Virus genome (UHGV): UHGV-0073462
DNA from: a virus
Direction: 5' to 3' (one strand)
Length of the DNA: 16,539 bases
Shown: one piece after another, positions 3,151 through 15,905 of the stretch
Layout: every line of letters starts with the position of its first letter
Position numbering within the stretch: the stretch's first letter is position 1
Program-made: the position numbers and the translations under genes
The notes under the pieces: generated by a model
The model's database searches: none
Told to the model about the DNA's origin: nothing
The model's input: only the letters and a program-made list of their open reading frames with translations

Positions 3151-3333
3151 CTACGGAATGAGAGGCTCTTCGGGTTTTGTTCCGGCTGACTGACTGGCGC
3201 TGATTTTCTCAGCGGCCCTTTTGTCAATCTGTCTGCACCAGAAATCTCTCACGACTCTGTACCCACCAGAAAGAAGATACAGCACACAAACTGCTGTACA
3301 GAAATACAATAAAATAAGCTGTAAAAATGTCAT
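3151..3333 (-). CDS. small membrane protein (60 aa), unknown function
   Basis: ATG at 3333 with strong SD GGAGGG about 5 nt upstream. N-terminal hydrophobic helix (LQLILLYFCTAVCVLYLLSGGY) followed by a charged tail. Confidence 0.5.
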   Translation of the reverse strand: MTFLQLILLYFCTAVCVLYLLSGGYRVVRDFWCRQIDKRAAEKISASQSAGTKPEEPLIP

Positions 3334-3476: not shown

Positions 3477-5420
3477 TTACGCGTTATTCACTTCCACCAC
3501 AATGCTGTCAATCAGCACCGGGTATGTTGCACCGTTAGTGATATCGGTCACGCGCAACTTGTCTGCCGTAAACGTGCCGACCGGAGACTGCGACAGCATG
3601 AACGGTGTCCCGTCCTGTCCATCAATCACCGGCGTCACCTGAATGCTGTTATTACCGGCAAAACGGAATGCCAGCGTATGCCATTCGTTATTAAATGCAC
3701 CGAATGAACCCAGCTTCGTGTTCTGGCCTGGATTACCCTTGTGGTACATCACGTTAAGGTCTGTGGCATCGCTCTGAACATAAAACGATGCCAGCAGGTT
3801 ATGACCGGCATTACCTTCCAGGGTAACCCCTTGTGGCAGGGCAGAAACCGGCCAGTACAGCGCCAGTGCGTACTGATTAGCCGTCAGTGTGCCGTCAACC
3901 TTAAACCGGCAGCTGACAAGACCACCTTTACCCAGCAGGTCTGCACCATTACCGGCATCATGCTCAAGGTACCAGGAGGATTTACCTGTTTCCTTGGTCA
4001 GTTTCATTGCCTTACCCCCGCTGGCTCCGGCATCATCCACGATTTGAGACTTGCCACCACCGGCAGTCCAGCCCTGTGGTGCCAGCTGTCCTTCAGACTC
4101 TGATGCCCGGTAAGCAAGCAACGTGCTCATTGTCGTTGTGTCAGCCGGTGGTGTGGACGGTTTTGATGGTGTATCAGGTGACGGCTTCTCATCCGGTGGT
4201 GTCACGGTCTGCCCGCGCATCAGTTCAGCCGTGCGCCCTGCATGGAGCATAATAGCTGAGGCCAGACGGTCTGAAATGACGCCCCTGCGTGCCCATGAGC
4301 TGAAATGGCTGTCACGCTGTGTCGAAACAAAACTGCCCTGGGTTCGGGATGCCGCACCGTAATACCCGACAGCCACAATATCCGGGTCTTCCGCCGGAGC
4401 ATTCGTTGGCGTGTTCTGTCCATTCTCATCCGTCAGGAACGGTACAAAGAAAATATTCTGTGCGGTCAGATTTTTATATGCGCCATAGACTGTTTCATAC
4501 TGCGTGGCATACGTGTTTTTCCAGTAATACGTGGTATCACCACAAATCCACGGCACCGTGCCAGCATTTCCACTCACGCACTGCGCTGCAAGTGGAGACA
4601 GGTCGGTTCTGAACTGCTGAACCATGGCTGTGAATAAACCATTATGCTGCTGACTTCCTGAAGCAAGGTCTGCCTCTCCCTGCATCCATACCACAGCCAG
4701 AAGTTTATTTTTCGGGTTCTTCGCCAGCGCCGCTCTGGTGCGACTGAGCAGGTCCTGATACAGGGGTTTACCGGCTCCCCAGCGTGAAGAATCAGCGGAA
4801 GCACCGCTGACCTCACTGAATGAGCCGTCGGCTCCGGTGGTAAATGCCGAACTGCCACGGCAACAGGACACCAGAAGTATACCGGCATTCTGCGGGATAT
4901 AAGGCAGCAGTTTTTTGGCAATATGCAGCCCCTGACCGACAGTCCCGTACTGGCCCTTACTCAGGTCTGCATGAGGATGGTTAAGTGCGCTCATGTCCTG
5001 AACATCATGCAGACAGTGGTCTGCCGGAATAACGTCATTGTATGCACAGGTATCACCACCCGGCGTCACAGTGCTGCGACGGGCCAGCTGCTTAATACGG
5101 GAGTCAGGTCGATCATAGGTCTGCGGCAGAGGAAGCCCCTCACCATAGGCCATACCGTTCGACTGCCCGGCCAGGGGAATAACGTAGTAATACTCCGGTT
5201 CAGTGATAGCCACTCCCGGAGAGCCACCAGCCCCTGTGTCGGGCACAACCACAGGCGTGGTCACATCACCCTCTGCGGCAATAGCCTGCATCAGTGTATA
5301 AGGAGTGATAGCCACAGGACTGCCAAATGGCTGCCACCCCTCCTTCAGTTTTTGAGTCAGTCGCTCCGCAAGGTCTGACGGCGACGCCGCCCTGACCACA
5401 TCGTAGTGTTTAAATGTCAT
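3477..5420 (-). CDS. nanS: prophage sialate O-acetylesterase (NanS-p / YjhS family; DUF1737 N-terminus plus SASA/SGNH esterase domain)
   Basis: 647-aa ORF with ATG at 5420 and SD GGGAGG. N-terminus MTFKHYDVVRAASPSDLAERLTQKLKEGWQPFG is DUF1737-like. Esterase motif YYYVIPLAGQSNGMAYGEGLPLP contains the GQSN catalytic-serine block. Position between Q/late leader and the holin matches NanS-p genes of Stx-type lambdoid prophages. Confidence 0.85.
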   Translation of the reverse strand: MTFKHYDVVRAASPSDLAERLTQKLKEGWQPFGSPVAITPYTLMQAIAAEGDVTTPVVVPDTGAGGSPGVAITEPEYYYVIPLAGQSNGMAYGEGLPLPQTYDRPDSRIKQLARRSTVTPGGDTCAYNDVIPADHCLHDVQDMSALNHPHADLSKGQYGTVGQGLHIAKKLLPYIPQNAGILLVSCCRGSSAFTTGADGSFSEVSGASADSSRWGAGKPLYQDLLSRTRAALAKNPKNKLLAVVWMQGEADLASGSQQHNGLFTAMVQQFRTDLSPLAAQCVSGNAGTVPWICGDTTYYWKNTYATQYETVYGAYKNLTAQNIFFVPFLTDENGQNTPTNAPAEDPDIVAVGYYGAASRTQGSFVSTQRDSHFSSWARRGVISDRLASAIMLHAGRTAELMRGQTVTPPDEKPSPDTPSKPSTPPADTTTMSTLLAYRASESEGQLAPQGWTAGGGKSQIVDDAGASGGKAMKLTKETGKSSWYLEHDAGNGADLLGKGGLVSCRFKVDGTLTANQYALALYWPVSALPQGVTLEGNAGHNLLASFYVQSDATDLNVMYHKGNPGQNTKLGSFGAFNNEWHTLAFRFAGNNSIQVTPVIDGQDGTPFMLSQSPVGTFTADKLRVTDITNGATYPVLIDSIVVEVNNA

Positions 5421-6474: not shown

Positions 6475-6672
6475 TCACTGCGGAAGGCGTCTGTAACAAC
6501 CGAACTGATAGTCTGCCAGACCCGCCATAACCAGCTGGGTCAGTATTAACTGGCAGCGTTCGCGTGAAAGGTAAGTATTCTGCGCTATCTCCCCGACTGT
6601 CGCCGGTTCGGTGACGCTTAATTCATTAAACACCACTCTGGCGGTTTCTGTCATATCCTGCTGTTTTAGCAT
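6475..6672 (-). CDS. small hypothetical protein (about 65 aa), possible helix-turn-helix DNA-binding protein
   Basis: First ATG at 6672 (MLKQQDMTETARVV...); upstream SD is weak (AAGGG). The segment TVGEIAQNTYLSRERCQLILTQLVMAGLA looks HTH-like. The longer track ORF (to 6762) would run into the terminator after Q. Confidence 0.35.
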   Translation of the reverse strand: MLKQQDMTETARVVFNELSVTEPATVGEIAQNTYLSRERCQLILTQLVMAGLADYQFGCYRRLPQ

Positions 6673-6873: not shown

Positions 6874-7266
6874 CTAATCATTTTTTACTTTTTTGGGCAG
6901 CCAGTCGTCCATCTCCAGCCTTACACCCAGCATCGACAGACATCCGTCAATAAATCCTTCAGCAATCTGCATCTCAATTCGTATTGCCTTTTCGCTCTTC
7001 TTTCTTGTTCTGGCAATCTGCCTTTTTGATATGCGCAGCAGATAATGAGCTACCAGCAGCGAATACTCGTCCGGTTTTTTCTTCTTCAGGCGCGTAAGGC
7101 AGTTTTCGATGATAAGGCCGTCATCATCGCTGCAGGCCGGGCGAGGTTTAGCGGTGGATGGTAAAAGGCCTTTAAATCCAGCAGCTATCGGAGAATAGTC
7201 CACCCCGGCGTTACCACTTGCCGCCCATGCCCCCCAGCGTTCGAGAACCATCTGAATATCACGCAT
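6874..7266 (-). CDS. Q: late-gene antitermination protein Q (phage 82 / QuuD-like family)
   Basis: ATG at 7266 with SD GGAGA 7 nt upstream. Product begins MRDIQMVLERWGAWAA..., the N-terminus I recognise from 82-type Q / E. coli QuuD. Immediately upstream of the late leader and lysis genes. The track's longer start at 7281 is a non-ATG start I reject. Confidence 0.8.
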   Translation of the reverse strand: MRDIQMVLERWGAWAASGNAGVDYSPIAAGFKGLLPSTAKPRPACSDDDGLIIENCLTRLKKKKPDEYSLLVAHYLLRISKRQIARTRKKSEKAIRIEMQIAEGFIDGCLSMLGVRLEMDDWLPKKVKND

Positions 7267-7283
7267 CAACTTTCTCCACAAAA

Positions 7284-8273
7284 TCAGGACAGCACACCAA
7301 TCGCCAGCGCGCGATCGATAAAACGAAATATCAGCTCCAGCTGGGAGCCATACTTCTCTTCAAATGCCACGGTATCCGCATGCAGCTCGTCGTGATGCTT
7401 TCTGCACAAAGGCAACACAAAGAGGTCATGCGCTTTTGTACCCATTCCGCCCTGACCGTGACCTATCAGGTGGTGGGGATCATCAGCAGGTTTTCCACAA
7501 CATGCGCACGGCTGCGTCTTAACCCAGCGCGTGTACTTTTCATTAACCCAGCGGCGACGTTTTGGGCGTAACATAAAAGACTCCGGCGACTCCGGATCCA
7601 CTTTCAGCGCCAGCACCTTTTTCGCTTTATCCTGGATGATGCTGGTGGCAGGAACCGAAGGCACAAGGTCACTTTCCCGGGTGACAGACGGCACAACAGG
7701 CTTCGGTAATCTCAGTGCCTTACGGGCTGCGCTTTCCGGTAAGGCATCCGCCAGGTCATTACGAACCAGCCACCAGCACAGTTCCGGCATTGTCACAACG
7801 TGACTGTCATCAAAACCGAGATCCCGACGCACGACAGACAACACCCAGCGGGCACAGTTATCCGTTGCCATTGATTCCAGCCGTTCCGTGAACTGGTCAC
7901 GGAGGAGATTGTCACAGTGCCAGCACAGACGGATTGCGCCTGGCGCGTGCCGCATTGTGGTCATGTTCTCGCTGTGCCAGTCGGAATGAGGCCACTGACA
8001 GCCCTTTTCACGAAGTAACCAGCTCTCAAGGCATTCCACGCCACCAGCACGACGGATCACCGCCTCATTGCGGAACACGGCCCGAACGGCAGGATCATCC
8101 GCCAGCGGTTGTGATGCCGCCGGAACGGCACCACTGGCGAAAGATGAATAACGCTCCGGCTCAGGCTCCAGCAGGACACGCCCCTGCATAAACAGGGGCA
8201 TCAGCTCTGAACCTGGCCTGAACAATACGATCCCCATACGCGGGGCAATTTCAGGGGTCAGTAGTGCTCTCAA
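7284..8273 (-). CDS. nin-region protein with C-terminal DUF968 / HNH-like motif (YdfU-like)
   Basis: 329 aa. C-terminus CACCGKPADDPHHLIGHGQGGMGTKAHDLFVLPLCRKHHDELH carries the Cys/His pattern of DUF968 (HNH-like) prophage proteins. Probable TTG start at 8273 with SD GAGGT 6 nt upstream. Position directly before Q fits nin-region proteins. Confidence 0.65.
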   Translation of the reverse strand: MRALLTPEIAPRMGIVLFRPGSELMPLFMQGRVLLEPEPERYSSFASGAVPAASQPLADDPAVRAVFRNEAVIRRAGGVECLESWLLREKGCQWPHSDWHSENMTTMRHAPGAIRLCWHCDNLLRDQFTERLESMATDNCARWVLSVVRRDLGFDDSHVVTMPELCWWLVRNDLADALPESAARKALRLPKPVVPSVTRESDLVPSVPATSIIQDKAKKVLALKVDPESPESFMLRPKRRRWVNEKYTRWVKTQPCACCGKPADDPHHLIGHGQGGMGTKAHDLFVLPLCRKHHDELHADTVAFEEKYGSQLELIFRFIDRALAIGVLS

Positions 8274-8282
8274 CGTAGAACC

Positions 8283-8798
8283 TCACAGCACAATCTGTTT
8301 CAGTTTCTGTACCGCTTTCCCCATATCCGCCATAGCATCAACAAACTCATCAAATTTACGACTTGCCATTCCATACGCCTGGAGGATTTCCAGTTTCAGA
8401 GGATCCAGTTGCTTTTTAATTTCCGCACGATCATTAAATTTCTTCTCTGCTTCTTCCGCAGCCCTGATCAGCTCCTCAGCATGCCTGCGTAATTCATCCG
8501 GAGTAACGGTCTTTTTAATCACAACGGGTTCCTCTGTTTTTACTGGTATTTCACTATTTACTGCCTGATGTCCAAATTTAGGATGATGTAACGTTGTAGT
8601 TCTTCCATCATTCGCAACGACCAGAAGTCCACTGTCGCGGATAATGCCAATGAGTATCTCCTTATCCCTTTTATTCAGTAGACTGTACGCCTGCACTTTC
8701 TGTGATATCTGGGTCAGTGTTGCGCCTTCCGGCATTCGTTCAACAAAACGTTTAACCCTGGATAAAACTGGCTGCAGATGGGGTGGTGTAATTCTCAT
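8283..8798 (-). CDS. hypothetical protein (171 aa), possible winged-helix N-terminus and helical C-terminus
   Basis: ATG at 8798 with SD GGGAGG 8 nt upstream, overlapping the stop of the KilA-N gene. No domain recognised. Confidence 0.6.
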   Translation of the reverse strand: MRITPPHLQPVLSRVKRFVERMPEGATLTQISQKVQAYSLLNKRDKEILIGIIRDSGLLVVANDGRTTTLHHPKFGHQAVNSEIPVKTEEPVVIKKTVTPDELRRHAEELIRAAEEAEKKFNDRAEIKKQLDPLKLEILQAYGMASRKFDEFVDAMADMGKAVQKLKQIVL

Positions 8799-8813: not shown

Positions 8814-9629
8814 TCAGTGAACGGTATCGAGCAGCTTTAACAGCTCAGGGAATCGGGATTCGAAGAAATGCGGCTGCGTCTCGCGCGGATTTGCAGGACT
8901 GGTGATGTTCTTGCCGAACATGCAGCCTTTCGCTGTCAGCGACCAGAATTTTTTGATGTTGTTAATCGCGGTACGGCTGTATCGTTCGCGCTGCTCGACG
9001 ATCCCCAGTTTCACCATCTGGTGATATGCCTGATTAGCCGTCAGGCGGATACCATACTGCTTCAGCAGTGCACTCAGCGACAGCGTAGGGCGGCTTGAAC
9101 CATCTGGCGCATCAGCAGGTGCATCAATGGCATAGATCGGCATAAGTTCAGGAAGACCAGCTACCTTTGATAATTTCTGGTATGCACCAAGTTTCGAGGA
9201 GTTTGACAGATTTAGAGTCTTTGCTGCTGATTCAAGCAGAATGACCCCGGATTTAATTTTGTCGGATGTGGTTTCTTCTGGTGATGAATTATGAAGCGCA
9301 TCGAAAGTACGTATCACTTTTAAGCTGAATGCCGGGCTGATCCACATTGCATATGCATAGACCAGCTCTTTACAGACATACGTCCCACCATTGCGCCCCT
9401 GAATGGTGATGACAGGAATACTACGGGAATCTCCCGTAGTTTCTTCTTCCAATAATTCCACAAGAGCCTTCGTTTCAGGACGACGCATAAACTCGTGAAC
9501 TTCCAGCGAACGGGAGGAGCGATTCTCACCAGCGGCAAGAAGAGCAGCTTTCTGAAGGTCGTTAAGACAGTAGTTAGATTCGAAGTACTGGCGCACAGAA
9601 ACGCCATCAATTACAAGCAACTGATTCAT
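8814..9629 (-). CDS. KilA-N domain protein, antirepressor-like (KilA-N N-terminus with ANT/KilAC-like C-terminal region)
   Basis: ATG at 9629 with SD GGAGA about 5 nt upstream. N-terminal region ...YCLNDLQKAA...GTYVCKELVYAYAMWISPAFSLKVIRTFD matches the conserved core of the KilA-N (APSES-like) domain. The C-terminal half resembles antirepressor C-domains, less certainly. Confidence 0.7.
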   Translation of the reverse strand: MNQLLVIDGVSVRQYFESNYCLNDLQKAALLAAGENRSSRSLEVHEFMRRPETKALVELLEEETTGDSRSIPVITIQGRNGGTYVCKELVYAYAMWISPAFSLKVIRTFDALHNSSPEETTSDKIKSGVILLESAAKTLNLSNSSKLGAYQKLSKVAGLPELMPIYAIDAPADAPDGSSRPTLSLSALLKQYGIRLTANQAYHQMVKLGIVEQRERYSRTAINNIKKFWSLTAKGCMFGKNITSPANPRETQPHFFESRFPELLKLLDTVH

Positions 9630-9727
9630 TGGTTTCTCCACAAATTTTTATCCACGAGCGGGACTGCACTCCCTTTTCGTTGATGCAGGATGAACTTACT
9701 GCGATTTTTAATAGTTATCAAGGATAC

Positions 9728-9745
9728 ACTGTTCATAAATACAGT
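9728..9745. promoter_or_regulatory. LexA-binding site (SOS box) in the promoter region of the KilA-N gene
   Basis: aCTGT-TCATAAAT-ACAGt fits the E. coli LexA consensus CTGT-N8-ACAG with an AT-rich spacer and correct flanks. It is the only such site I found in the window. Lies 80-100 bp upstream of the KilA-N start, next to -35/-10-like hexamers on the minus strand (TTGAGC-17-TATTAC, and TTGATA-17-TAAGTT). Confidence 0.6.
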
Positions 9746-9791
9746 ATCTTTAACGAGGTAATACCCAAATTTAGGGTGTTGCTCAATTCCG

Positions 9792-10187
9792 TTACCGAGT
9801 TGCTAATTTGCAACTCGCTTTTTCGTACTTACTGATAGTGATCTCGACCTTCCCTTCCGGGATAACCGGTCCCCACTCCACCAGCATTCTTTTCACCTGG
9901 CTGTCGTCTTCCCACACACCCGCGTGGGTCAGAACGTCAAACAGCGCCTTGTTATAGTTGTCCAGATCGCGGATCCTGTTATCCGGAGGAAACAACACAA
10001 TCTCTACTGAAGCAGGTGCCGACGTTGGTTTCGGCAGACGACGTAACTGCTCAACTATTGCTGCACACGCCGCGCTCTGGAATTTTCGCCCCGCCGCGCT
10101 TATCAGGCTCTTACCAGCAAACGCCCCTTTGTTAGGGTGTCGCCAGTACGTGTTCACGCTGGGCGGAAAAGGCAGTATTAGCTTCAT
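9792..10187 (-). CDS. rusA: Holliday-junction resolvase RusA (crossover junction endodeoxyribonuclease)
   Basis: 131 aa, MKLILPFPPSVNTYWRH...DLDNYNKALFDVLTHAGVWEDDSQV matches the RusA family pattern (PPS.N..Y; DLDN; D-D). ATGA overlap with the upstream gene. Confidence 0.85.
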   Translation of the reverse strand: MKLILPFPPSVNTYWRHPNKGAFAGKSLISAAGRKFQSAACAAIVEQLRRLPKPTSAPASVEIVLFPPDNRIRDLDNYNKALFDVLTHAGVWEDDSQVKRMLVEWGPVIPEGKVEITISKYEKASCKLATR

Positions 10188-10510
10188 ACTTTCAGGCCCC
10201 TCTCATGTAACCAGTGGGCTGCACGCAGCCTGGCGTTTGCCTCACCGGCAAGCAGGGCGCGGATAATCCCGACCGCCTCGCTGTCGTCGTCCTTCACCGC
10301 GGTATGAAGAGTGATACCCCGGGCCACGCCACGCTTTATCGTGATGACACCTTTTTTCTCCAGTGCTCGAAGATGCTCCACCGCTGCATTCACCGAACGG
10401 TATCCCAGCATGGTTGCCACCTCCTGATTGGTTGGCGGGAAGCCACGTTCTTTCTGATAAGAAATCAGCATATCCAGCACCTGCTGCTGGCATTGAGTTA
10501 ATGTCGTCAT
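10184..10510 (-). CDS. LexA N-terminal DNA-binding-domain-like protein lacking the S24 peptidase domain
   Basis: 108 aa. MTTLTQCQQQVLDMLISYQKERGFPPTNQEVATMLGYRSVNAAVEHLRALEKKGVITIKRGVARGITL aligns by eye with E. coli LexA residues 1-70, including recognition-helix residues (S-x-NAA-x-EHL). No catalytic Ser/Lys domain follows; a short helical tail instead. ATGA overlaps on both sides. Confidence 0.75.
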   Translation of the reverse strand: MTTLTQCQQQVLDMLISYQKERGFPPTNQEVATMLGYRSVNAAVEHLRALEKKGVITIKRGVARGITLHTAVKDDDSEAVGIIRALLAGEANARLRAAHWLHERGLKV

Positions 10511-11158
10511 GCCGCCATCTCCCTGACCAGTTTTTCCGCCTGCTGGCGAACCTGCGCCAGAAAGGCCTCACCACATGCCTCAAGTTCATCGCGCCCGATG
10601 TAGCTGATTGCCGCTCCCTTCCAGGTCTTGTCGAAAACAGCAATAGCACCAGCGAAGAAAGCACCTGTTGGCACCTGCTTTTCGTCTTTCGGGATAAACC
10701 AGGCTGGCAGTTCAAAACCAATACGCCCGCGAATAAAAGCAATATGATCTGCATCTTCCGGCCACCACACTTCGCTGGTGGCCGCTTTGATCAGGAAAAC
10801 ATAGCGCCCGCCTTTATCACGCATGGCACTGGCATGCTTCATGATGTAACGCATGCCGGTGATGTATTGTCCCTCATGCTGACTGGCGCGGCTGTACGGG
10901 GGATTACCAAAGGCAGCACCTTTAAGCTCCGCAAGACGTTCTGACCAGTCATGTGCCAGCGCGTTGTCTTCCGCCGTGTAATACGCGGCACATTTGGCGT
11001 TATCACCGTCAGTAAACAGATCCAGAACAAACGGGCCAAACAGGGTGTTAATTCCCCAGAAAATGTTGTCCGGCGTGCGCCACTGATCGCCCACTTCCTT
11101 CAGTTCATGGGCTGGTTTGTTCCGTAGTTCCACCAGCGCCTGGCAATATTTATTACTC
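10507..11158 (-). CDS. phage orphan N6-adenine DNA methyltransferase (Dam-type)
   Basis: 216 aa from ATG 11158 (MSNKYCQ...). Contains the NPPY catalytic motif (GAAFGNPPYSRAS). TAATG overlap with the upstream gene stop. No adjacent restriction endonuclease candidate. Confidence 0.8.
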
Positions 11159-11159
11159 A

Positions 11160-11648
11160 TTAAGCCCCCACGTAATTCCCTGACAGATACCACTCATCAC
11201 CCGCTACAGCGCGCTTTCTGCTTTTCCGTAAGCACCGCTCACGACGCGCCAGAAAATTGTTTCGTTCTGGCTGGGAGTGGCTTTCACGGAATGCCGCCAT
11301 CCACACGGTTGCAGCACGACGGTATAAGCCCCTGGACTCCAGTTCTTCCGCCTGGCGGGTCAGGCACAAAATCACCCGGGGATCGTTAGTGCCGACATAG
11401 AAATTGCGCACAGGTATGGTTTCAAGAACAGGTTGCAGTTTCTCCTCCTGCGATATCTCAGCCTGGTGTGGGAAATGTCTGCGTGTTTTCCCTTCACAAC
11501 AGTGAGCCACACGGCCACTCTGACGTAACTTGCTTGCTGACTGCAGAACGCACTGTCGTGAGTAACCAGCAAAAGCATCCGCAATGTCACCTGAAGTACA
11601 CCCCGGATGGGCTTCAATGAATTTCTGTACATCGTTCATCAGACTCAT
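11160..11648 (-). CDS. putative transcriptional regulator with PerC-like C-terminal motif and HTH-like N-terminus
   Basis: Segment RGLYRRAATVWMAAFRES...RRERC resembles the PerC-family signature (GLWRRAA..W) of PerC/Pch prophage regulators. N-terminus DVQKFIEAHPGCTSGDIADAF looks HTH-like. Start ATG 11648, or GTG 11654 overlapping the upstream stop. Moderate confidence in family. Confidence 0.5.
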   Translation of the reverse strand: MSLMNDVQKFIEAHPGCTSGDIADAFAGYSRQCVLQSASKLRQSGRVAHCCEGKTRRHFPHQAEISQEEKLQPVLETIPVRNFYVGTNDPRVILCLTRQAEELESRGLYRRAATVWMAAFRESHSQPERNNFLARRERCLRKSRKRAVAGDEWYLSGNYVGA

Positions 11649-13151: not shown

Positions 13152-14308
13152 TTGCGCCCCCTTACCTCTGAAGGGTTCAGCGACAAATTTATGAGACTGG
13201 CCAGTAGCGCCGCGTCGTTGATGCGGTCATACAGACTTACAGCCAGCGGGGATTCGGCTTTTGCCAACATGGGATAAAGCTGCTGCAGCCAGACCTTGTG
13301 GATTACCGACAGGTGGGAGTAAAGCACGCTGGCGTTATCTGCGGCATCGCTCAGCGTGGATGGCTTTGAAAGCAGTTTTTCCATCTGGTTAAAGGCATTG
13401 ATGTATGCCTCTTTGAACCGGGCAGCACGTTTACCCGTGAAACCCATAGCAAGAAACGCAAAACCGTCTCGTGTGATTTGATAGCAAGGGAGCTTGCGTG
13501 TACCACCGTTCGGTTGATTTACCGAAATCGATGTCTCCGCAAAATTGCGGGCACAAAACTCTGGGGAACAATCCAGAGTGCGGATCTTTTTCAGCACATC
13601 GTCGTGACGCTTGGAGAAGGAGTTGGCAACAGCCAAAGAAGTGGTAACGGCCTGGCCGTTGTCAATGGTGATTTCAGGTTGAGTGAGGGCTGGGTTCGTA
13701 GCCATGATGGCAGCCTCCGTTGACAGTGAAAAACTTCCACCACCGGAAACGCCAATTTCACTGGTGGTGAACTGGACGGGGTTGGCGTAACCGGCGTCAA
13801 CGGAGACCGGCGCACCTTTCGGTGCCCCCGCCCAGCCCACCATAATCTGGATGTGAGCAAATGCGGACGATAAAAAAGACGCTGGCGCGTCATACATCGC
13901 CGTTGACAATTTCAGGACGCCAATCCCGGCACCCGCTTTATAAGGTGCCTGAACAGTGTAACGTCCCGGAATGGCAGAATCAATATGCTGGTGGTCCTTC
14001 ACACTCAACAAAATCACGCCTGAATTTCCACAAAGGACTAAAGCACTCATGCGGGTAGTCTTTGCGAAGATAGATAACGCGCTGTGTTTCTGGCTCCCAA
14101 CGAATAACATGGACATAAAGCCCTCTTCCGTCACGAAACCAGCGGTTAAGTTCCTGCACAACTCGCCCCCCACAGTCAGGTAAAGTTCTCTGTGGTTACT
14201 TACAGCCAGGTGATTTGGTAATCTGCATTCATGCCGTAACAACAGGTGTTCAGCGACGCTGACCACCAGCTGTTGCGACAAACGGTTATTTGCCGTTAAA
14301 CTATTCAT
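13148..14308 (-). CDS. Rha-domain phage regulatory protein with a roughly 200-aa N-terminal extension of unknown nature
   Basis: Residues about 205-315 (MATNPALTQPEITIDNGQAVTTSLAVANSFSKRHDDVLKKIRTL...YQITRDGFAFLAMGFTGKRAARFKEAYINAFNQME) match the Rha (Phage_pRha) domain. The ORF stays open about 600 bp upstream to an ATG at 14308 that overlaps the CII-like stop (ATGA). No other long ORF covers 13750-14308. Confidence 0.6.
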   Translation of the reverse strand: MNSLTANNRLSQQLVVSVAEHLLLRHECRLPNHLAVSNHRELYLTVGGELCRNLTAGFVTEEGFMSMLFVGSQKHSALSIFAKTTRMSALVLCGNSGVILLSVKDHQHIDSAIPGRYTVQAPYKAGAGIGVLKLSTAMYDAPASFLSSAFAHIQIMVGWAGAPKGAPVSVDAGYANPVQFTTSEIGVSGGGSFSLSTEAAIMATNPALTQPEITIDNGQAVTTSLAVANSFSKRHDDVLKKIRTLDCSPEFCARNFAETSISVNQPNGGTRKLPCYQITRDGFAFLAMGFTGKRAARFKEAYINAFNQMEKLLSKPSTLSDAADNASVLYSHLSVIHKVWLQQLYPMLAKAESPLAVSLYDRINDAALLASLINLSLNPSEVRGRK

Positions 14309-15212: not shown

Positions 15213-15905
15213 ATGAACATAGGAAATCGAGTCAGACAACTTCGCCAGGCGAAGAACATGAAAATCGCCGATCTCGCTGAAGCAATAGGAGTGGATGCGG
15301 CGAATATCTCGCGCCTCGAAACAGGTAAGCAGAAACAATTCACTGAACAAGCCCTGAGTAATATTGCCAGGAGCTTAGGTGTTGATATTGCTGATCTCTT
15401 TACCTCAGACCTCAAAAGTAATACTGTATGTAAAAACAGTATTAGTGAGGATGTTGCGCAGGTGAAGGATGTATTCCGTATTGAAATGCTGGATGTCAGT
15501 GCCAGTGCGGGAAATGGCCTTATCCAGGGCGGTGATGTCATTGATGTGATTCATGCCATTGAATACAGAACTGATAATGCTGTATCGATGTTTGGTGGAC
15601 GACCAGCAAATCACATTAAAGTTATCAACGTTCGTGGGGACAGTATGTGTCCAACCATTGAGCCAGGAGATCTCATCTTCGTTGATATCAGTATCAATCA
15701 GTTTGATGGGGATGGTATCTATGTGTTTGGTTTTGATGATAAAATTTATGTCAAACGACTGCAAATGATACCTGACAAACTACTGGTAATTTCTGATAAC
15801 CAGATTTACCGTGAATGGGGAATTACCAGCGAAAATGAACACCGGTTTATGGTCTTTGGAAAGGTCTTAATCAGCCAGTCACAAACCCTTAAGCGACACA
15901 ATTAA
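15213..15905 (+). CDS. cI: CI-type prophage repressor (N-terminal HTH plus C-terminal S24 LexA-like autopeptidase domain)
   Basis: 230 aa. HTH (MKIADLAEAIGVDAANISRLETGKQ), S24 peptidase motifs (GDSMCPTIEPGDLIFVD; downstream KR in IYVKRLQ). Little or no leader before the ATG, as for lambda cI from pRM. Confidence 0.9.
   Translation: MNIGNRVRQLRQAKNMKIADLAEAIGVDAANISRLETGKQKQFTEQALSNIARSLGVDIADLFTSDLKSNTVCKNSISEDVAQVKDVFRIEMLDVSASAGNGLIQGGDVIDVIHAIEYRTDNAVSMFGGRPANHIKVINVRGDSMCPTIEPGDLIFVDISINQFDGDGIYVFGFDDKIYVKRLQMIPDKLLVISDNQIYREWGITSENEHRFMVFGKVLISQSQTLKRHN

Follow-up and report, generated by a model that had tools for sequence, protein, structure and literature searches.

A candidate LexA operator ahead of the KilA-N gene in the nin-like region of the lambdoid prophage UHGV-0073462

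The rusA–KilA-N gap and its LexA box

The DNA analysed here, a stretch of 16,539 nucleotides (nt) from the virus genome UHGV-0073462 (the window), contained on its minus strand the early right operon of a lambdoid prophage, and the element studied was a LexA (SOS) box located ahead of a gene for a KilA-N domain protein. Genes in the operon were arranged in the order cro-like, ymfL-like, Rha-like, replication genes, PerC, Dam methylase, and LexA_DNA_bind protein, followed by rusA, a gap of 162 nt (9630–9791), the KilA-N gene, an open reading frame (ORF) of 171 amino acids (aa), a DUF968/HNH gene, and the antiterminator gene Q. The closest relatives were SfIV, PhiR49_1, the Stx2a/2c phages, mEp460, SfII, and SfV. 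From the replication genes to Q no gap other than that of 162 nt exceeded about 20 nt; as stated in an earlier note made from these letters alone (the original prediction), the 162-nt gap held the box, which lay directly upstream of the KilA-N gene, 97 nt ahead of the start codon (ATG at 9629, preceded by a GGAG Shine-Dalgarno sequence at 9636–9639). The features needed first are as follows.

9727–9746, no strand assigned: LexA (SOS) box, TACTGTATTTATGAACAGTG on the gene strand and CACTGTTCATAAATACAGTA on the plus strand
9693–9721, minus strand: best sigma-70 promoter candidate, with -35 TTGATA (9716–9721), a 17-nt spacer, and -10 TAAGTT (9693–9698)
9741–9768, minus strand: weaker alternative promoter, with -35 TTGGGT (9763–9768), a 16-nt spacer, and -10 TACTGT (9741–9746)
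8814–9629, minus strand: KilA-N gene, 271 aa

The gene-strand sequence TACTGTATTTATGAACAGTG agreed with the LexA consensus TACTGTATATATATACAGTA at 16 of the 20 positions and possessed an exact CTGT-N8-ACAG core at 9729–9744 with the spacer TCATAAAT; the 16-bp core, 20-bp palindrome, and A/T-rich spacer typical of gammaproteobacterial LexA operators were all present at 9727–9746. Published work places the cut-off for LexA-bound sites at a heterology index (HI) of about 12.6. A matrix reconstructed from 28 operators of E. coli, which yields approximate HI values, gave the box an HI of 5.45, within the range of LexA-bound sites, while the 28 training operators themselves spanned 1.1 to 9.8; among 300 first-order Markov shuffles of the window none contained a site as good, the best reaching 7.05. 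The boxes of the Gifsy dinI-antirepressor operons have values of 3.9 to 5.3 on the published scale, which uses another matrix than the one applied here (PMC8072944). The near-consensus site proposed in the original prediction was thus confirmed, by its core as well as by the matrix score that had been named there as a check.

Promoter candidates were sought by a simple -35/-10 weight-matrix scan of the gap. The best of them, TTGATA-17-TAAGTT, scored 10.2 as compared with a background 90th percentile of 7.75 and maximum of 11.1; its transcription start would lie near 9686, placing the centre of the box at about -50, with 5 nt between the end of the box and the downstream TTGATA. The alternative, TTGGGT-16-TACTGT, scored 5.7, close to the background median, and would have its -10 and start site covered by the box. 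A stricter built-in promoter scan returned nothing in the gap, and in the antisense (plus) direction the weight-matrix scan gave weak candidates only, which were rejected. The promoter in the gap is therefore a predicted one, supported mainly by comparison with orthologues (see below). The original prediction had placed the box in the promoter; it abuts the best candidate, and overlaps a -10 element only for the second candidate of background-level score.

Orthologous loci and the mosaic module

With the N-terminal half of the KilA-N protein as the query, 80 loci were retrieved, one genome per species. In Enterobacterales the order rusA, gap, KilA-N, (171-aa gene), DUF968, Q was conserved. In gaps of about 90 to 160 nt the top promoter usually stood at the same distance from the ATG, its -35 near -90 and its -10 near -65, and this equivalent position was the top promoter candidate in most of the gaps scanned (L011, L012, L014, L017, L018, L028, L029, and L031). 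A LexA-like palindrome was located beside or over the equivalent promoter in orthologous gaps. It was found 4 to 5 nt upstream of the -35 in Citrobacter L028 (HI 7.4), Raoultella L018 (9.05), Atlantibacter L011, and Phytobacter L012; over the candidate -35 in Pantoea L034 (9.75) and Rosenbergiella L032 (10.05); and in the spacer or over the -10 in Edwardsiella L029 (6.5), Buttiauxella L014, and Serratia L007. In Erwinia L031 a box of HI 8.4 covered the -10 of a promoter scoring 13.0. CTG-N10-CAG was kept across these boxes though their spacers differed. The LexA match was better than those in shuffles of the same gap at p<0.05 in 14 of 23 gaps (Fisher combined 3e-16), some of the 23 being homologous to each other and thus not all independent, and sites with HI<10 occurred in 5 of 80 upstream regions versus 1 of 1002 background windows of 310 nt drawn from these loci.

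An asymmetric form of the box was observed in five loci (L011, L012, L014, L092, and L096), in which the promoter-distal half-site read GTGG or GTGT in place of CTGT and the proximal (A/C/T)CAG was kept. This form could reflect a decay of LexA control passed down from one ancestor, or a shift in specificity.

Alignment with Lys8385Vzw revealed a mosaic cassette that runs from the final codons of rusA through the entire gap to about codon 165 of the KilA-N gene. In Lys8385Vzw, rusA is followed after a 19-nt gap, which has neither box nor promoter, by a KilA-N gene with a different N-terminal allele, while the C-terminal part is near-identical to that in the window. In the other phage records, which cover only about 54% of the region (SfV, SfII, mEp460, and the Stx2a/2c phages), rusA likewise abuts a different N-terminal allele, with neither box nor promoter, and the C-terminal part is again near-identical. 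The box-bearing cassette is carried by SfIV, PhiR49_1, and 186 of the 5426 complete E. coli genomes, including O104:H4 C227-11, S88, and strains of O157:H7 and O111:H8. Among the aligned E. coli and Shigella copies the box varied at position 20 only (G or A, with A closer to the consensus). In the most divergent copies, 91.6% to 95% identical and with an 11-nt deletion in the leader, the flanks were altered and the box was kept.

Proposed regulation and product of the KilA-N gene

The site itself, its quality, its conservation, where it lies, and the fact that LexA-like boxes recur at promoters of orthologues were read directly from the sequences. Since a box of high quality stands beside a promoter-like sequence and LexA-like boxes occur at orthologous promoters, SOS control of the KilA-N transcript is likely. 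The best reading, to which a probability of about 0.65 was given, is that the palindrome is an operator for host LexA at a sigma-70 promoter of the KilA-N gene, inserted in a subset of prophages, because the box is kept in the aligned E. coli and Shigella copies and LexA-like palindromes recur next to the equivalent promoter of orthologues.

Several observations weigh against this reading. The HI matrix is a rebuilt and approximate one, and literature searches yielded no report of this site, its LexA binding, its start site, or its inducibility. With respect to the best promoter candidate, the box lies off the -35, the -10, and the start, a position unusual for LexA that could mean weak repression. 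Most of the E. coli phage orthologues (SfV, SfII, mEp460, Stx2a/2c, and Lys8385Vzw) have no gap, box, or promoter, and no gap precedes KilA-N in Proteus, Morganella, and SfV-type E. coli phages. In Kluyvera, Leclercia, Atlantibacter, Phytobacter, and Buttiauxella the distal half-site has undergone a C to G change (GTGG/GTGT) and HI values are 12 to 15; since several of the closer relatives show this change, LexA control is not maintained throughout the clade.

The neighbouring genes that bear on the extent of the transcript, on the ligand of the box, and on immunity are the following.

10507–11193, minus strand: Dam methylase
10184–10510, minus strand: LexA homologue of 108 aa, DNA-binding domain only, two genes upstream of KilA-N
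9792–10187, minus strand: rusA, its 3′-end being the left edge of the mosaic module
8283–8798, minus strand: 171-aa protein, function unassigned, an optional insert between KilA-N and DUF968
7284–8273, minus strand: DUF968/HNH gene, co-oriented with KilA-N
6874–7281, minus strand: antiterminator Q, co-oriented with KilA-N
15213–15905, plus strand: cI, with helix-turn-helix (HTH) and Peptidase_S24 domains

From 9629 to 6874 all genes have the same orientation with gaps of at most 15 nt. A transcript from the KilA-N promoter may reach Q, because a terminator scan of the minus strand from 9629 to Q yielded no convincing intrinsic terminator; the first good ones on this strand, at 6488–6471 and 6145–6126, are located past Q. 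The co-oriented 171-aa gene mentioned in the original prediction is indeed present behind KilA-N, as an insert that was absent in SfIV, PhiR49_1, O104:H4 C227-11, S88, and FRIK944.

In the sequence of events proposed here, LexA occupancy, the promoter with its start site, repression, and the extent of the transcript are predicted. In some of the SfV/mEp460/Stx-like lambdoid prophages, promoter and box would have entered between rusA and KilA-N along with the distinct N-terminal allele of the latter. LexA bound as a dimer to 9727–9746 in a lysogen would cover -40 to -60, abut the -35 TTGATA, and hinder binding of RNA polymerase. Upon DNA damage, RecA-stimulated cleavage of LexA would free the promoter for transcription of KilA-N and the optional 171-aa gene, perhaps also of DUF968 and Q. 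Such SOS transcription of KilA-N would need neither inactivation of cI nor pR or N.

The predicted KilA-N protein matched PF04383 at residues 10–114 (E=1.3e-15; 57.6 bits versus a gathering cut-off of 23.8). Its AlphaFold (AF2) model, with a mean predicted local distance difference test score (pLDDT) of 75, had a KilA-N/APSES-like N-terminal domain and a helical middle, and matched viral KilA-N proteins at E 2.6e-10 and Mbp1 weakly; the C-terminal part (residues 182–269) had only weak winged-helix-like fold matches. Foldseek against PDB gave no match better than E 0.3, the PDB sequence search gave nothing meaningful, NCBIfam gave no match, and Pfam at E<=10 gave none for the C-terminal 145 aa, KilAC/ANT included. 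The protein belongs to PHROG 129, labelled "transcriptional regulator", and in PADLOC its KilA-N domain weakly matched the candidate system PDC-S22 and nothing else. Phage P1 KilA and the KilA-N domain family PF04383, reportedly described by Iyer, Koonin, and Aravind in 2002, likewise have the N-terminal KilA-N domain, but the C-terminal part of the window protein has no Pfam match. Given a KilA-N DNA-binding domain and a weakly winged-helix-like C-terminal part, the product is more probably a DNA-binding regulator than an antirepressor.

The antirepressor function suggested in the original prediction, by which a LexA-controlled KilA-N protein would inactivate the cognate cI or a co-resident prophage repressor and thereby open a second SOS route to induction, was not supported and is considered unlikely. 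KilA-N domains are present in some proteins annotated as antirepressors, a point for such a function; the Gifsy dinI-antirepressor operons have the same layout, a LexA box before a gene of the nin region, and expression of the KilA-N gene would precede cI cleavage or not depend on it. However, domain and fold searches detected no ANT/KilAC, AntA, BRO, or DinI/Tum-like domain, no known antirepressor was among the fold matches, and the homologues listed (120 of 2728) were named "KilA-N domain-containing protein" and once "DNA-binding protein", none of them "antirepressor". Moreover, the box and KilA-N module was found with at least three immunity regions, namely the mEp460/SfII-type cI (window, O104:H4, and S88), the SfIV/PhiR49_1-type cI with a GDSM motif, and in O157:H7 FRIK944 an S24-family repressor annotated as "LexA family protein". 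In mEp460, SfII, and Stx2a_1447 the cI type of the window is also accompanied by the KilA-N allele that lacks the box, so that KilA-N alleles and cI types are not coupled. The window cI has an HTH and a Peptidase_S24 domain (E=5.9e-19) with GDSM and KRL motifs, in agreement with the self-cleaving S24-type cI noted before, and all three partner repressors appear to be S24 self-cleaving types, which would not require an antirepressor. Most orthologues, furthermore, are ordinary delayed-early genes that lack a promoter of their own and would be made after the repressor is gone.

In coliphage 186, Tum is under the LexA-repressed p95 promoter. In the Salmonella prophages Gifsy-1, -2, and -3, LexA controls the dinI-antirepressor operons gfoA, gftA, and gfhA, and induction occurs via the LexA-repressed antirepressor and does not rely on RecA to inactivate the phage repressor (Lemire et al. 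2011, PMC3121763). The window resembles the Gifsy prophages in being lambdoid and in having, after a palindrome, a LexA box located between the replication genes and Q; the Gifsy box makes its operon SOS-inducible independently of the phage repressor, and the same is proposed for KilA-N. A LexA box on a prophage gene outside the immunity region is thus shared with the Gifsy and Tum modules. In those modules, however, induction does not go through RecA-mediated self-cleavage of the repressor, whereas the window cI has a complete S24 domain, and the KilA-N protein showed no homology to a known antirepressor (DinI/Tum-like, GftA-like, Ant/KilAC, AntA, or BRO-N), matching PF04383 only. Unlike the DinI homologue and small antirepressor of Gifsy, the product here is a 271-aa KilA-N protein without similarity to them, and the palindrome in the window lacks a U-tract on the gene strand. 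As in 186, a single LexA-repressed phage promoter is predicted to tie a regulatory gene to SOS, but 186 is P2-like, and its Tum protein, a DinI-like antirepressor, acts on a repressor that is non-cleavable, with no homology and in another genome context.

As to the ligand, the 108-aa protein encoded two genes upstream matched PF01726 (E=2.9e-19), shared 43% identity with E. coli LexA over residues 1–91, and kept the recognition helix RSxNAAxEHLxAL and the wing motif RG. It has AGE where the LexA cleavage site would be, lacks the S24 autoprotease/dimerisation domain, and ends at residue 108; TIGR00498 scored 70.7 bits against a cut-off of 110.95 and aligned at profile positions 1–91 only. By tblastn the protein was found in 61 phage or prophage records, about 50 of them at >=95% identity and in the context Dam-LexA-like-RusA. 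Genes of this kind are clustered with rusA and KilA-N in E. coli, Citrobacter, Kluyvera, Cedecea, Leclercia, Atlantibacter, Buttiauxella, and Raoultella, and in Edwardsiella L029 (1232–1450) a 72-aa version stands directly after KilA-N within the box-controlled operon.

It is conceivable, though doubtful, that the box is used mainly or also by this protein, which cannot self-cleave, either for re-repression of the KilA-N promoter and other SOS boxes after induction or for activation of that promoter. Its retained recognition helix and wing, the clustering in many genera, the Edwardsiella arrangement, and the position of the box upstream of the -35, unusual for a repressor, would fit such a role. 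A precedent is gp6 of GIL01, a truncated LexA homologue acting at a phage promoter where it is centred at -43.5 (PMC6182141, PMC4551915); it was the only functional precedent found for a phage protein with a LexA DNA-binding domain alone. GIL01 shares with the window a LexA homologue of this type together with host-LexA boxes at phage promoters, but is a tectivirus of a Gram-positive host with LexA/gp7 at P1 and P3, and its gp6 recognises a distinct sequence and activates a late promoter. The gene and the KilA-N box, on the other hand, are not coupled: L002, L050, SfV, and mEp460 have the gene without the box, and L031, L034, L006, and L007 have the box with no detectable lexA-like gene in the 2.5-kb flank, which counts for host LexA as the binder. 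The LexA DNA-binding domain binds only weakly without the dimerising C-terminal domain, a further point against this role, and any dimerisation of the 108-aa protein through its 38-aa tail is putative. Host LexA is the simplest ligand, and the 108-aa protein is kept as a possible secondary, non-exclusive one.

That Q is the main output of the SOS promoter, giving faster late expression or a partial bypass of cI, pR, and N, is quite improbable. The co-oriented, closely spaced genes without a convincing terminator before Q would permit it, but Q made from an unexcised, unreplicated prophage under mild SOS would amount to suicide without phage, Rho-dependent termination or polarity may come into play, and across genera the box before KilA-N is conserved whatever the type of Q. 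Finally, the palindrome would be a chance or decayed LexA-like sequence, or the operator of an unrelated dimeric regulator, only with very low probability. Half-site decay in several relatives and the position off the core promoter agree with such an origin; the shuffles that never reached the score of the box, its retention in aligned E. coli copies while the flanks vary, and the independent recurrence of CTG-N10-CAG boxes with different spacers at orthologous promoters do not.

Returning to the host-LexA operator, chromosomal SOS operators of E. coli such as those of recA, uvrA, sulA, and umuDC, reported by Lewis (1994) and Fernandez de Henestrosa (2000), share with it the 20-bp TACTGT-N8-ACAGTA palindrome, the A/T-rich spacer, and an HI in the range of bound sites, but usually overlap the -35, the -10, or the start, whereas the window box ends 5 nt before the -35. 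The KilA-N box is probably a functional LexA operator of an SOS-inducible promoter, which would place KilA-N among the LexA-controlled prophage genes already known from the nin region. Were the promoter indeed under LexA control, about 3% of the complete genomes of E. coli would contain a prophage gene for a DNA-binding protein that is turned on at the first stage of SOS, its expression preceding, and being independent of, prophage induction. KilA-N would then be a new member of the SOS regulon and might affect the host, other prophages in the same cell, or the time at which Q-dependent late genes are expressed.

LexA boxes elsewhere and the hairpins flanking the gap

The box in the gap had been described as the only LexA site in 16.5 kb, which did not hold, as exact CTGT-N8-ACAG cores were also located at 14190 and 15424. 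The latter belongs to a second and stronger box within the cI reading frame. It is listed here together with two hairpins near the gap.

15422–15441, no strand assigned: LexA box TACTGTATGTAAAAACAGTA, HI 2.7, within cI in the linker between the HTH and S24 domains
9660–9673, minus strand: leader hairpin GGGA-gtgcag-TCCC in the predicted 5′ untranslated region, about 20 nt upstream of the GGAG Shine-Dalgarno sequence
9796–9817: hairpin at the rusA end, CGAGTTGC-N6-GCAACTCG, 8 bp, -13.5 kcal/mol, z = -4.4

The cI-internal box occupied nt 210–229 of the coding sequence in all of 65 distinct cI genes of the family, which were taken from IMG/VR and shared 68% to 100% amino acid identity, with ST64B, Klebsiella P7641, and Eeyore as additional members. 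The divergent genes were reached by querying IMG/VR with an alignment, a single cI protein query having returned near-identical copies only. The hosts and phages include E. coli, Shigella, Salmonella ST64B, and Klebsiella, and 24 sequence variants of the box were observed (HI 0.46 to 7.3). At codon 70 the residue varies and the third base is T in 64 of the 65 genes, and codons 71 and 76 are invariably ACT and AGT, while the surrounding linker is otherwise free to vary; this pattern of codon use points to selection on the DNA sequence itself. The distance from TTTACN (codons for Phe63-Thr64) to TACTGT is always 17 nt, and this constant spacing suggests that the box lies over the -10 of an internal, sense-strand SOS promoter. 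Neither a conserved ORF in an alternative frame nor a conserved in-frame start codon was found downstream of the box.

The two parallel SOS inputs put forward in the original prediction, the KilA-N box and a self-cleaving cI, understate the case, as the box inside cI and the phage protein with only a LexA DNA-binding domain come in addition. The fixed codon position of the former and the conservation of the latter next to rusA and KilA-N suggest several points of connection to LexA in this phage group, over and above the known route of RecA-stimulated cI cleavage. These two elements are the more unusual lead and may matter more than the KilA-N box. A speculative and rather unlikely extension is that the nin region contains a LexA-mimic circuit run by the phage, in which induction or infection would lead to synthesis of the non-cleavable 108-aa protein from pR, and this protein would take over the SOS boxes left free by the destruction of host LexA. 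Its targets would be the KilA-N promoter box, the cI-internal box, host SOS genes, and the LexA-controlled antirepressors of rival prophages. KilA-N would then be shut off or re-timed, transcription inside cI altered, host SOS damped, and competing prophages suppressed, and the KilA-N box would be a node of a phage-controlled SOS sub-regulon, not simply a target of host LexA.

Two further LexA-like sites were observed. The prophage of E. coli O104:H4 C227-11 has a box, AACTGGATATTTTTACAGTA (HI 4.2; L097, 3738–3757), at the 5′-end of a DNA-methyltransferase gene past Q, and no counterpart of it was found in the window. At 3292–3311 the window itself has a borderline site, TGCTGTACAGAAATACAATA (HI 10.6), downstream of a 647-aa ORF (3477–5420), presumably an esterase-like gene, and before the lysis genes; it may have arisen by chance. 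A tRNA scan of the whole window detected none.

With regard to the leader hairpin, an Rfam scan of 9400–10000 at E<=5 gave no match, and MAFFT with RNAalifold on 24 orthologue leaders predicted no pairs, the hairpins being out of register. In a loop-anchored alignment, of a set pre-selected for at least 3 pairs, double changes occurred at all 5 pairs and 92.7% of cells were paired. The loop (G/T)TGCAG was invariant and the stems covaried across genera, with the compensatory forms GGCGG/CCGCC, GGGC/GCCC, GTCGG/CCGAC, and TCAT/ATGA. In many genera (leaders in L006–L057), box-less phages included, this hairpin precedes the start codon of KilA-N by about 20 to 45 nt, and in Proteus, Morganella, and Providencia a hairpin with the loop TGTACGG, TATACGG, or AATGCGG stands at the same place.

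The hairpin at the rusA end was not seen in the orthologous gaps inspected and was rejected as a terminator on the gene strand, there being no U-tract after it. It is terminator-like on the plus (antisense) strand only, where the T-run is coding sequence and such matches were equally frequent in shuffles. It overlaps the stop codon of rusA, where the left junction of the mosaic cassette lies.

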